This document shows, in pieces, positions 7,976-17,086 of a stretch of DNA of 28,010 bases. Below the pieces are notes generated by a model. It was not told the DNA's origin. It searched no databases and saw only the letters and a program-made list of their open reading frames with translations. Position 1 is the stretch's first letter. Every line of letters begins with the position of its first letter. Origin of the DNA: Polyangiales bacterium (GTDB lineage: Bacteria > Myxococcota_A > Polyangia > Polyangiales > Polyangiaceae); the NCBI GenBank assembly GCA_038231275.1, contig JBBRLQ010000056.1, positions 1 through 28,010 of the forward strand. The letters run 5' to 3'. Both the position numbers and the translations under genes were made by a program.

Positions 7976-10201
7976 TTACTCGATCGCGGGAACTTCGCGC
8001 GGGGCGAGCACGTAGGTGGTGCCACGGCCGTGCTTCGTCTCGGCGCGGACCGTGTACCCGCAGGTGGCCAGCTCTTCGCGGACGGCGTCGAGCCCAACGC
8101 CGCGCCCCGCCAATTCCCCGGGACGAATGCTCGTCGTGAGGCCTGCTTCGAACATCGCCTCGCGGGCCGGTCCGTCCACGCCGAGCTCCTTTGCGCGCGC
8201 GAGGATTTGGTCCTCGTCGAGCCCGCGGCCGTCGTCCTCCACTGTGATGACGGGCCCGCCTTCGCCCGCGGCGGCCGCGACGCGCACCGTGCCGACCGGC
8301 TCTTTTCCTTCGCGCGTGCGCTCGAGCGGGGTCTCGACGCCGTGCGCGACGGCGTTCTTCACGAGGTGCACGAGCACGCCGCCGAGGACGCGCGCGAGGG
8401 CAGGGGGGACTTTGACGTCACGGCCGCCGACGTCGAGCGTCACTTGCTTCTTCTCTTTTTCGGCCCAAGCGGGCGTCATGTCTAGGAGCGTGGCGGTGCT
8501 CTCACCGAAGCGCCGCGCACCGAGGCGCTGCACAGCGCGGCCGAGGGCGTCGTCGCGGTCCGCGGCGAGGGACAGGGCCTCCTCGACCTCGCTCCGCTGG
8601 ACGGTCATTTGATCGAGCGCGGCGCGGCCGACGGGGGACACGGCCACGAAGTCCTCGCGCGCGACGAGCACCGCGTCGTCCGCGCGCTGGAGGGCGGCGA
8701 GGAGTCGGTCATGCACGCCGCCGGTGAACGCCACGCCGACGTCGCGCGCGCGATCCCGAAGCGTGGCGAGGAGATCTTCGACGGCGCCGAGCTCGGTCTC
8801 GAGCTCGCGCAAGTCGAACGCGCGTGCCTCGCTGCGCATCGTGTGGGCGCGGCGGAAGAGCGCGTCGAGATCGGCGCGCGGGAGCTCGCGCGGCGCGGCG
8901 CCCAAGGTCGCGATGCAGACGGCGAGCTCCTCCCGCGATTTCTCGGTGAACGTCACGAACAGGTGCGCGCCGCCGGCGACGAGGCGCCGCATCGCCGCCA
9001 TGCGCCGCGCGTGCTCCTCGACCTGTGCCTCCACGGTCTGCTCGAGGCGTCGCACGTCGCTCATGTCGGTCGCGAGGAGCATGACGCGGTCGATCTTCCC
9101 GTCCTTCTCGATCGGGCGGAACTCCGCCTCGAGGGGCAGCGTCGTACCGTCGGGCCTGGTGACCGCGAGCTCCTTGGGCGCGAGCTTCGCGACGTCGGGC
9201 CAGTCCGCGAGCGCGACGTCGAACGCGACCGACAGCCACTCGGCGAACGCCTGCGCGTCGACGTCGTGCGACGGAACGCCGCCGTAGAGGAGCTCCTGGA
9301 TCTTTGCCCCCTCCAGGTGCTCGCCGAAGAACGCGCGCGCCTCGGCCGACGCTTCCCCCACCACGCGCCCGTCGCGATCGAACGCGAGGATGGCCTGGTG
9401 CATGTGATCGAGCAGATCGCGGATGCGACGCGTCGCGAGCGCCAGGTCCCTCTCGCGATCGGCGAGCGCCGCGCTCATTCCGTTGAACGCGCGCCCTAGC
9501 TGCCCGATCTCGTCGGTGGACGTCACCTCCACGCGCGCGGCGAGATCGCCCCGGCCCACGCGGCCGGCCGCGTCGACGAGGCGCGCGAGCGGCACGACGA
9601 TCTGGCGCCTCGCGACGCCAACGAGCACCGCCGCGGTCCCCGCCGAGAGGAGCACCGCGAGCCAGAAAATGCGGCTGCGCGTCTCGGTGAACGCCGCGTT
9701 CTCGCGGGCGAGCGAGAAGACGATCCGCGTCTTGCCGACCGCCTTTCCACGCGCACGGACGACGCGCGACACCTCGACGCGATCCGTATGGACGACGGGC
9801 GCGCCGGCGAGCTCGGCGGCGGTCGGGAGGGTCGTCGCGTCGCACGCCTCCTCGATTTTCGCGGCCGGCGCCGTTGCATCTCCCGCCCACACCGCGGCGC
9901 AGCTCACTTCGGGGTTTGCGTCGAGGTGCGAGAGCTCCGCGCCGATCGCCTCGGCGTCGCCGAAATCGAGCGGTGCCCCCAGCGACTCGGCGAACAGATC
10001 CGCGACCATCGACGCGGCGATGGTCTTGGCGGCGACCACGGCGGCCAGCTCTCGGCGCGAGACTTCGCGGTACACCAGCGCCGAGACGATCGCGAGGACA
10101 GCGACGGTCGCGAGCGCGAGGCGCGCCCCGATCGACAGCGCGCGGCCTGTCGCGCCGTTCGCGCCGCCCGCATTGTCCTCCCCTGTCCGCGCGGCGGCCA
10201 T
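7976..10201 (-). CDS. Membrane-bound CheA-type histidine kinase: TM, YfiN/CHASE8-like periplasmic domain, TM, HAMP, PAS-like, Hpt, HATPase (no CheW domain)
   Basis: Two TM helices; HAMP (PLARL..GDLAARV..DEIGQLGRAFNGM); Hpt LFRRAHTMRS (His codon 8843-8845); CheA-type ATPase HLVKNAVAHG, EDDGRG, FEAGLTT, GRGVGLDAV, GRGTT, ending about 12 aa later. Start is placed at ATG 10201 because the track start at 10504 is antisense to the next gene. Confidence 0.88.
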   Translation of the reverse strand: MAAARTGEDNAGGANGATGRALSIGARLALATVAVLAIVSALVYREVSRRELAAVVAAKTIAASMVADLFAESLGAPLDFGDAEAIGAELSHLDANPEVSCAAVWAGDATAPAAKIEEACDATTLPTAAELAGAPVVHTDRVEVSRVVRARGKAVGKTRIVFSLARENAAFTETRSRIFWLAVLLSAGTAAVLVGVARRQIVVPLARLVDAAGRVGRGDLAARVEVTSTDEIGQLGRAFNGMSAALADRERDLALATRRIRDLLDHMHQAILAFDRDGRVVGEASAEARAFFGEHLEGAKIQELLYGGVPSHDVDAQAFAEWLSVAFDVALADWPDVAKLAPKELAVTRPDGTTLPLEAEFRPIEKDGKIDRVMLLATDMSDVRRLEQTVEAQVEEHARRMAAMRRLVAGGAHLFVTFTEKSREELAVCIATLGAAPRELPRADLDALFRRAHTMRSEARAFDLRELETELGAVEDLLATLRDRARDVGVAFTGGVHDRLLAALQRADDAVLVAREDFVAVSPVGRAALDQMTVQRSEVEEALSLAADRDDALGRAVQRLGARRFGESTATLLDMTPAWAEKEKKQVTLDVGGRDVKVPPALARVLGGVLVHLVKNAVAHGVETPLERTREGKEPVGTVRVAAAAGEGGPVITVEDDGRGLDEDQILARAKELGVDGPAREAMFEAGLTTSIRPGELAGRGVGLDAVREELATCGYTVRAETKHGRGTTYVLAPREVPAIE

Positions 10202-10226
10202 GCTATTCCGGGCCTCAGGATACCGG
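10201..10226. promoter_or_regulatory. Candidate overlapping bidirectional promoter between the kinase and the YfiR-family gene
   Basis: Minus-strand TATCCT (10222-10217) and plus-strand TGcTATTCC (10201-10209). AGGA at 10217-10220 also serves as a Shine-Dalgarno-like site for ATG 10227. Confidence 0.4.
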
Positions 10227-15544: not shown

Positions 15545-15547
15545 CTC

Positions 15548-17086
15548 ATGACGTTCGTGCCCAAGACCGTCGGCCGCTACACCATCTACGGCGAGATCGC
15601 CGCGGGCGGCATGGCGACGGTCCACCTCGGGCGCGTGCAGGGGCACGGCAACTTCGCGCGCACCGTCGCGATCAAGCGCCTCCACCCGCAGTACGCCGCC
15701 GATCCCGACTTCGTCGCGATGTTCCTCGACGAGGCGTGGCTCGCCGCCAAGATTCACCACCCCCACGTCGTCCAGACGCTCGACGTCGTGAGCGAAGGCA
15801 CCGAGCTCTTCCTCGTCATGGACTTCGTGCAGGGCGAGAGCCTCTCGCGCATCTGGCGCGTGATCCGCGAAGAGGGCAAGCAAGCACCGCTGTCCGTGAC
15901 GGCGAGCATCGTCTGTGGCGTCCTCCACGGCCTCCACGCCGCGCACGAGGCGAAGGACGAGACGGGCGCGCCGCTCAACATCGTGCACCGCGACGTGTCG
16001 CCGCAGAACGTGATGGTCGGCGTCGACGGCATCGCGCGCCTCGTCGACTTCGGCGTCGCGAAGGCCGCGGTTCGACTCCAGTCGACGCACGACGGCCAGG
16101 TGAAGGGAAAGATCGCGTACATGGCGCCCGAGCAGCTCGAGCACCACGAGGTGTCGCGGCTCTCCGACGTGTACGCGGCGTCGGTGCTCTTGTGGGAAGG
16201 CCTCGTCGGGCGGCGCCTCTTCGACGCGATGACCGAAGGGCAGCTCGTGTCGAAGGTCGTGCAAGGCGTGATCGAGCCGCCGAGCGTCGCGTTGCCCGGC
16301 CTGTCGGCGGACCTGGACGCGGTCGTGATGCGCGGCCTCGCGAGCGATCCGAAAAAGCGCTTCGCCACTGCGCGCGAAATGGCGTTGGCGATGGAGCGCT
16401 CCGTCGAGATCGCGCGCGCGTCGCAGGTCGGTGAGTGGATCGAAGAGGTCGCGGCGCCGCTCCTCGCAAAGCGCACCGAGCGCATCGCGGAGCTCCTCGG
16501 CACGCCGTCGGTCCGCTCGATCCCCGCGGCGTCGGTGCGACCGATCGGGGAGGGGACTGGCACCGGAGTCCGGACGCTCGTCGAAGGGGCCCCGTCGTCA
16601 CTGCCGCCGCGGACGTCGTCGTCGGTCTCACGTCCCGCCGCTTCGGTCGATGGAACGCCCAGCGGACGCACCGCGAGCAGCCCGTCGAGACCCGCGGTCC
16701 GCCGCCGCGTGCTCGTCATCGACGACAGCGAGATCATCCTCGGCAAAGTGAAGCGCGCGCTCGAGGAGGACGGCTTCGACGTCATCGCCACCACACAAAC
16801 CGTGGGCAACGCCCGGCACCTCGTAGGCACCGACCTCGTCATCATCGACTACCACATGCCCGGCCTCGACGGCGGCACGGTCATCGCGTCGCTCCGCTCG
16901 GCGGCGTCGTCGAGCGGCCGCCCGACCCTCTTTTATCTCTACACGCAGGATCCGGGCATCGCGAAGGACTACGCGAAGCTAGGCTTCGACGGCTGCTTCA
17001 CCGGCAAGGGTGACGACAAGACCCTCGTCCGCCAGGTGCGCTCGGCGTTCCGCGTCGTCCAGATGCGCGCGCTGCGAAAGAGCTGA
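15548..17086 (+). CDS. Hanks-type Ser/Thr protein kinase fused to a C-terminal response-regulator receiver domain
   Basis: IAAGGMATV, VAIKRL, HRDVSPQN, DFG, YMAPE, DVYA; Ser/Pro linker; receiver RRVLVIDDS, DLVIIDYHMPGLDG (Asp codon 16847-16849), LYT, FTGK. No TM segment seen. Confidence 0.93.
   Translation: MTFVPKTVGRYTIYGEIAAGGMATVHLGRVQGHGNFARTVAIKRLHPQYAADPDFVAMFLDEAWLAAKIHHPHVVQTLDVVSEGTELFLVMDFVQGESLSRIWRVIREEGKQAPLSVTASIVCGVLHGLHAAHEAKDETGAPLNIVHRDVSPQNVMVGVDGIARLVDFGVAKAAVRLQSTHDGQVKGKIAYMAPEQLEHHEVSRLSDVYAASVLLWEGLVGRRLFDAMTEGQLVSKVVQGVIEPPSVALPGLSADLDAVVMRGLASDPKKRFATAREMALAMERSVEIARASQVGEWIEEVAAPLLAKRTERIAELLGTPSVRSIPAASVRPIGEGTGTGVRTLVEGAPSSLPPRTSSSVSRPAASVDGTPSGRTASSPSRPAVRRRVLVIDDSEIILGKVKRALEEDGFDVIATTQTVGNARHLVGTDLVIIDYHMPGLDGGTVIASLRSAASSSGRPTLFYLYTQDPGIAKDYAKLGFDGCFTGKGDDKTLVRQVRSAFRVVQMRALRKS

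Follow-up and report, generated by a model that had tools for sequence, protein, structure and literature searches.

A conserved Polyangiaceae gene cluster in which a YfiR-associated class III-type histidine kinase may signal to a receiver fused to a Hanks-type Ser/Thr kinase

Can a histidine kinase that is controlled from the cell envelope hand its signal directly to a Ser/Thr kinase encoded in the same gene cluster? This question is raised by a 28,010-base stretch of DNA from a Polyangiales bacterium (the window). The stretch is the entire contig G000:C56; the assembly comprises 9.28 Mb in 164 contigs and is 94% complete. Source labels on close relatives of its proteins read Polyangiaceae, Polyangiales or Labilithrix. 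The window encodes a membrane histidine kinase of 741 amino acids (positions 7976-10201, minus strand) and, divergently on the plus strand, a YfiR-like periplasmic protein, a TonB-dependent receptor, two Cys-rich predicted lipoproteins (LP1 and LP2) and a soluble Hanks-type Ser/Thr kinase that carries a receiver (15548-17086). A first, sequence-only reading had taken these six genes for an undescribed cascade from the outer membrane to Ser/Thr phosphorylation. Here we show that the locus is real and conserved and goes beyond a chance neighbourhood. The receiver is, from its relatives, almost certainly the partner of the class III-type histidine kinase, which is probably controlled by the receptor and the periplasmic relay protein. 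Our preferred explanation is a YfiR/CHASE8-gated class III-type system in which a single lineage of Polyangiaceae joined the receiver to a Hanks kinase; with its gating, phosphotransfer and output steps taken jointly, we give it a little less than an even chance.

The gene arrangement proposed earlier proved exact on re-reading. ATGA overlaps at 10793 and 13024 are followed by gaps of 13 and 3 nt, and the divergent starts are separated by 25 nt (10202-10226), which is too short for two ordinary promoters. This divergent gap has equal length and near-identical sequence in genome G327 and is longer in the other genera inspected. GC content at third codon positions is 0.87-0.92 across all six frames. 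Comparison of neighbourhoods confirmed that the genes co-occur: the same six-gene order is found in six other genomes (L074, L077, L081, L084, L085 and L086; three genera counting the window), so that the linkage exceeds chance. At four further loci from two additional genera (L076, L078, L082 and L083) the layout is rearranged and the fusion gene faces the kinase or the receptor gene.

A class III-type histidine kinase and its receiver subfamily

The kinase chain runs from a transmembrane segment through a CHASE8-like periplasmic domain, a second transmembrane segment, HAMP and PAS to an Hpt domain and an ATPase of the CheA P4 type. In a Pfam scan HAMP, Hpt (residues 423-507) and HATPase_c score above the cut-off and PAS below it, and neither a CheW domain nor a receiver of its own is found. 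The Hpt domain is internal, unlike the N-terminal Hpt of the CheA chemosensory kinase. H453, E475, N616, D656-D657-G658 and G699/G701/G703 are invariant in 37 of 37 aligned kinases, and the ATPase of the AF2 model (pLDDT 88.5, pTM 0.58) superimposes on CheA P4 structures with a target TM-score of ~0.8. A longer upstream start of the gene (the frame is open to 10504) was rejected, as it overlaps the YfiR-like gene and adds no hydrophobic or conserved sequence.

Class III histidine kinases combine sensory domains, an Hpt domain and a CheA-like ATPase and lack CheW; their gene neighbourhood holds a single-domain response regulator and CheX or a soluble chemoreceptor. The kinase studied here fits this class, with an internal Hpt and a CheA-type ATPase in a membrane sensor without CheW. 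It shares with the class the single chain of sensor, Hpt and ATPase, and most of its relatives use a single-domain receiver; it differs in its YfiR/receptor input and in having its receiver fused to a Hanks kinase. No CheX match lies on the window contig (such matches are on contigs C6 and C25 of the genome) and no chemoreceptor (MCP) is found by Pfam among the six proteins. For the class PMC6501615 cites Adebali et al. 2017 (doi 10.1128/JB.00218-17), and PMC6963811 does so for the missing dimerisation domain. In our kinase Pfam finds neither HisKA nor H-kinase_dim, but the model places additional helices (496-561) in the stretch that separates the Hpt domain from the ATPase.

A profile built from the source genome's own receivers finds no second receiver on the contig, in agreement with the earlier statement that the fused one is the only receiver in the window. 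This receiver shares 50-58% identity with six stand-alone receivers whose genes adjoin class III-type kinases and 39% with a seventh, whereas no other receiver in the genome exceeds ~34%. With the receiver alone as query, 82 of the 383 genomes searched in the family gave a match (a tally that includes one unpublished genome, G446, which contributes no other data). Among 98 non-self places we examined 40, taking every top hit that had a long frame and sampling a range of genera; the rest may hold further fusions. The 40 loci divide into 27 with a stand-alone and 13 with a fused receiver.

The kinase is present in all 27 stand-alone loci, the receiver lying within 360 bp of its catalytic part in 25 and at 1.6 kb in two; YfiR accompanies 14 and the receptor 15 of them. 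The 13 other fused loci hold the kinase in ten cases, YfiR and the receptor in nine each, and LP1 and LP2 in seven each. Two of the three lacking the kinase are cut contigs (L075 and L079), and the third, L080, has none in 15.8 kb. The kinase-receiver link is kept across three gene orders. Kinases of fused loci form a clade of 11 rows (nine fused, two stand-alone; support 95) with a split that mirrors the tree of the Ser/Thr kinases. Since the receiver subfamily adjoins this kinase type in 27/27 and 10/13 loci, transfer from kinase to receiver is well supported by context, and this part of the sequence-only reading stands. The kinase would very likely autophosphorylate at His453 in the Hpt domain and pass the phosphate to Asp434 of the receiver, a partnership for which the context speaks strongly.

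In a phylum sample the profile of the subfamily matched 6 of 401 genomes, all of the same family (few candidates were scored per genome). A further scan of genome contigs yielded at least ten strong loci, and of 80 metagenome loci 34, mostly short, were mapped. The correlation of kinase and receiver identities over the 40 loci (Spearman 0.54, Mantel p 0.001) is not counted as evidence because shared descent explains it. Two apparent fusions of the sensor kinase with this receiver (P0082 and P0111) were set aside as likely sequence errors, both lacking the ATPase and one being out of frame before the receiver.

Two small genomes, G059 and G170 (L109 and L110), hold four to five copies of the receiver subfamily, and the receivers at these loci precede PAS-Hpt-ATPase kinases without a match to the periplasmic sensor. 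The source genome also contains a second class III-type locus (G000:C16:86139-99163) with a sensor kinase and, after five unrelated genes, a receptor and a YfiR-like gene; its receiver stands alone, is CheY-like and belongs to a different subfamily. The kinase of this locus groups with two kinases that share its receiver type, apart from 36 others (support 100, subject to a long-branch warning).

A receiver joined to a Hanks-type kinase

The fusion protein comprises a Hanks kinase domain (residues 9-285), a Ser/Thr/Pro-rich linker and a C-terminal receiver (387-512), with no predicted transmembrane segment. Pkinase scores 112.6 bits, and the Lys, Glu, HRD-Asn, DFG and APE motifs are all present. 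A first search gave 64 family members at 57% identity or more, and a profile search for longer proteins raised the number to 92. K43, E62, D149, N154, D167, T180 and E195 are unchanged in every covering row (58-62 of 64), and D392, D434, T466 and K487 of the receiver, where D392 and D393 form the acidic pair, occur in 64/64. The full HRDxSPxN loop is seen in 86 of the 92 proteins; of the remaining six, five are truncated N-terminally and one departs from the pattern. The intact catalytic residues of both enzymes and of the receiver argue for a working relay.

Among the 60 kinase domains closest to it, L083 being left out, 13 fusions form one clade of the tree (support 95), and 45 of 47 paralogues around it have a predicted transmembrane tail, which fits the replacement of a membrane input by the receiver. 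Fused receivers nest among stand-alone receivers in their own tree, with weak inner support. As most relatives have a stand-alone receiver without such a kinase, we infer that the Ser/Thr output is a derived add-on of one lineage, with a presumed direction. Phosphorylation of the receiver would then switch the attached kinase, by release or by targeting, and the signal would leave as Ser/Thr phosphorylation. To this step we give slightly better than an even chance; control of the Hanks domain by the receiver is the least certain step of the scheme.

A different origin of the fusion would be the chance joining of a neighbouring kinase gene to the receiver, with no functional coupling. Chance neighbours must be common in a genome with ~297 Ser/Thr kinase and 136 receiver open reading frames (ORFs), and the relatives that carry the fusion are kin and not independent. 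However, only three of these kinase ORFs carry a receiver, and the fusion persists in 14 genomes of five genera and in ~90 protein clusters with invariant active sites, so that we regard a mere passenger as very improbable.

Several observations weigh against the proposed switch or against the breadth of the relay. As many as 27 of the 40 receiver loci do without the fused kinase, and no close Ser/Thr kinase is found in any of the 27 within the stretch examined; as a general rule, the Ser/Thr output of the sequence-only reading is therefore not borne out. The C-terminal helix of the receiver, with R118 invariant, is kept in stand-alone and fused forms. Together with the 27 loci lacking a Ser/Thr kinase this indicates an older output that belongs to the receiver itself. 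Two stand-alone loci (L089 and L094) fall inside the clade of sensor kinases from fused loci, and the Hanks domain can therefore be lost. A larger FastTree analysis does not keep all fusions together and requires three changes; besides that of L083, three further fusions stand apart at weak support. At L083 (3723-5228) the same receiver sits on a different kinase subtype (HRDLKP) with intact motifs, in a receptor-YfiR-kinase locus, a find that in itself counts for the preferred scheme. FastTree places its kinase domain with other kinases, and this singleton from a 77%-complete assembly represents a second recruitment or else a chimera of the assembly. At L080, in genome G450, the sensor kinase is missing from the 15.8 kb that hold the fusion and is encoded on another contig. 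On the input side, 13 of the 27 stand-alone loci lack YfiR and 12 lack the receptor within the stretch examined, and in seven the kinase has no match to the periplasmic part.

These data also accommodate a co-incidence or feedback node, in which the receiver retains an ancestral CheY-like output, its C-terminal helix binding some target, and the Hanks domain serves as an additional input or as a modifier. Its substrate would be the linker, the receiver, the histidine kinase or that shared target, and Asp434 would not switch it. The absence of the kinase from 27 of 40 loci, the helix conserved in both forms and a slot that can take two kinase subtypes all agree with such a node, as does the variable linker with its 21 Ser/Thr in 66 residues. 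Against it, the fused kinase lacks the transmembrane tail of its paralogues and hence has no other evident input, and the fusion is kept intact, with its full catalytic loop, in 86 of the 92 proteins examined. We consider the node somewhat unlikely and retain the receiver-switched kinase as the preferred reading.

His-Asp phosphorelays that end on a Ser/Thr-type kinase are known from yeast (Sln1-Ypd1-Ssk1-Ssk2) and from HsbR of P. aeruginosa. Ssk1 acts in trans on a mitogen-activated protein kinase kinase kinase (MAPKKK) and the kinase of HsbR is of the HATPase type, whereas here the Hanks domain and the receiver share one chain; the likeness is one of analogy only. As bare domain architectures, kinase-receiver fusions are already listed in census papers. 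Our literature search found no receiver-bearing Hanks kinase paired with a kinase of this class, though census papers outside its coverage may list such fusions.

The periplasmic side: YfiR-like protein, receptor and lipoproteins

The YfiR-like protein (10227-10796, plus strand, 189 amino acids) matches PF13689 (DUF4154) with 41.8 bits against a cut-off of 24.9 (E 1.4e-10). It has a signal-peptide-like N-terminus and no cysteine, which excludes disulfide sensing. The domains named in the sequence-only reading were found by Pfam for HAMP, Hpt, HATPase_c, DUF4154, Pkinase and Response_reg. The exception, and a further point against the proposed gating, is CHASE8, which stays below the cut-off at 21.9 versus 27 bits (E 2e-4). 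The DgcN/YfiN model matches kinase residues 63-253 with E 1.5e-8.

According to PMC4887326, residues L166/I169/V176/L181 of P. aeruginosa YfiR form the pocket that binds F57 of YfiB. Alignment with the solved YfiR is weak (E 0.017) and puts L167/A170/F177/L182 of our protein in register with these residues; the four positions are conserved in 41, 43, 35 and 40 of 44 sequences. No YfiB/Pal-type family matches any of the six proteins in Pfam at E values up to 0.1. That the pocket is kept though neither lipoprotein matches this family counts in favour of the preferred scheme.

Compared with YfiBNR of P. aeruginosa (HmsCDE of Yersinia), the cluster shares a YfiR-family protein and the pocket positions, and its sensor resembles the transmembrane-CHASE8-transmembrane-HAMP type, with HAMP above and CHASE8 below the cut-off. 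It differs in having no YfiB/Pal lipoprotein, the receptor being the candidate outer partner, in carrying Hpt and HATPase_c in place of GGDEF, and in a YfiR without cysteines. By analogy with YfiR and YfiN, binding of the YfiR-like protein to the CHASE8-like domain would quite probably keep the kinase off.

The receptor (10793-13027, plus strand, 744 amino acids) has Plug and barrel domains by Pfam. Near its N-terminus an acidic leucine stretch (residues 35-41) immediately precedes a TonB-box-like stretch (42-48); together they span 10895-10936. L36 is found in 40 of 44 and L40 in 44 of 44 aligned receptors. Of 48 receptors that are YfiR-adjacent and intact at the N-terminus, 45 show a loose form of the acidic leucine pattern, which recurs at chemoreceptor-type YfiR loci even where the receptors are only distantly related. 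This candidate helix may be a YfiR-binding element that substitutes for YfiB. An outer ligand on the receptor, perhaps with the help of LP1, would expose the helix, which would then take YfiR away from the kinase in place of YfiB; we judge the whole step to be evenly balanced. The specificity of the pattern points both ways and adds to the reservations above: none of three unlinked receptors of the source genome carries it, a control of three receptors only, and the loose pattern also matched an unrelated receptor whose gene and a YfiR gene are 3.4 kb apart.

The receptor could also simply import a ligand that YfiR or the CHASE8 domain binds, so that the kinase is freed without receptor-YfiR contact and the downstream steps remain the same. 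Such uptake would suit the complete plug and barrel and the several YfiR-kinase loci without a full adjacent receptor, and it recalls that vitamin B6 or Trp binds weakly to the same pocket of P. aeruginosa YfiR, as reported in PMC4887326. Simple transport, however, would not need a motif that recurs in distant receptors, and most YfiR/receptor gene pairs overlap by 4 nt. Uptake with sensing is a possibility of some weight, short of even; capture of YfiR by the receptor helix is the version we pursue.

With YfiR as the anchor, 37 of the 201 genomes searched in the order gave matches, and we examined 40 regions among 48 non-self places. There YfiR stands with the receptor, often with LP1, and with a CHASE8-like sensor of varying output: a class III-type kinase, a hybrid kinase, or a HAMP protein that has a CheA-type gene next to it. 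The fusion and LP2 are present in none of the 40. In nine loci (L061, L064, L066, L067 and L069-L073) the same input takes a chemosensory-type form: YfiR lies next to a CHASE8-like-HAMP protein, and the CheA-type gene there comes with receivers.

The front end is therefore not undescribed, contrary to what had been proposed. The best NCBIfam matches of the receptor, the YfiR-like protein and the sensor part of the kinase are NF053590 (TOL_0244 receptor), NF053591 (TOL_0243 YfiR-like) and NF053592 (YfiR-associated histidine kinase), a triad whose three gene kinds are likewise encoded together. All three scores lie far below the cut-offs (99.7/645, 27.8/125 and 66.8/194, respectively). The cluster differs from this triad in its transmitter of Hpt and CheA-type ATPase and in its receiver on a Hanks kinase. 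In 2012, PMC3375315 already described YfiR-YfiN cores that lack YfiB and whose output is a histidine kinase, HPT or MCP; as far as its main text and eight supplements go the term 'TonB' is absent, and the supplements contain no myxobacterial genus term. No paper on a receptor-YfiR-kinase system was found within the coverage of our search, and domain-census papers may list this kinase group. Both the trio on the input side and the class of the kinase are of known kinds. What appears new is the receiver subfamily dedicated to this kinase, the joining of such a receiver to a Hanks kinase, and the receptor helix as a candidate YfiR binder.

The lipoproteins had been read as outer-membrane input. 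LP1 (13024-13470, plus strand, 148 amino acids) has 12 invariant Cys and a lipobox-like C29 among 18 aligned sequences and is confidently predicted as an all-helical domain. It has no family match and no fold match in 'pdb', the best Z of 4.4 in a wide search being not significant. Present in 12 of the 40 YfiR-anchored loci, LP1 commonly follows this receptor family and is, on the simplest reading, a receptor accessory. An apparent receptor-LP1 fusion in L077 still has the signal-like stretch of LP1 inside and is likely a frameshift. LP2 (13484-15544, plus strand, 686 amino acids) consists of myxobacterial disulfide repeats (DUF4215, TIGR02232) and a C-terminal domain of no known family; Atlas matches for LP1 and the LP2 tail score below 0.9 and are unnamed. 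LP2 is restricted to the clade with the six-gene order. As it occurs in seven of the 13 other fused loci and in none of the 27 stand-alone or 40 YfiR-anchored loci, it is a clade-limited accessory and not core input, and the earlier view of it as an input finds no support. On contig C15 (region G000:C15:163575-172535) an unlinked LP2 paralogue lies ~5 kb, with five genes between, from one of the two other Ser/Thr kinase-receiver genes of the genome, which has a different receiver type; this may be chance.

Surroundings and significance

The genes around the cluster do not appear to belong to it. A radical SAM gene with a B12-binding domain (6540-7961, minus strand) starts 14 nt downstream of the sensor kinase but is found in 0/40 loci and is absent from L074 of the same genus, and the gene after 17086 is likewise found in 0/40. 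TonB-like, ExbD-like and ExbB-like genes, recognised by eye (1625-3661, minus strand), lie 4.3 kb from the kinase and recur in 1/40 loci, of the same genus; other stretches may end before them. A nucleotidyltransferase-like ORF, also named by eye, opens the contig (1-677, plus strand) and overlaps a short downstream ORF. The window further encodes a second Ser/Thr kinase of 780 amino acids (25077-27419, plus strand) with a long C-terminal part that is TolB-N/TPR-like by eye; it shares 35% identity over 184 residues with the fused kinase.

The full cascade, in which the receptor helix captures YfiR, the receiver directly switches the Hanks kinase and this converter was recruited at least twice, is in our view unlikely to hold in every part. 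If true, it would amount to a bacterial His-Asp-to-Ser/Thr converter and would provide a binding mechanism for the receptor-YfiR-CHASE8 module.

Myxobacteria have hundreds of Hanks kinases and almost no known inputs for them. For one such kinase the locus names an upstream kinase, a donor His and an acceptor Asp, and two-component control of a Hanks kinase therefore becomes testable with three soluble fragments. Class III-type kinases gain from it a defined extracellular input, and the receptor helix is a concrete hypothesis for how a signal may cross the periplasm without YfiB in a widespread receptor-YfiR-sensor module. The cluster may be a place where one of the two main phosphorylation systems of bacteria passes its signal straight to the other.

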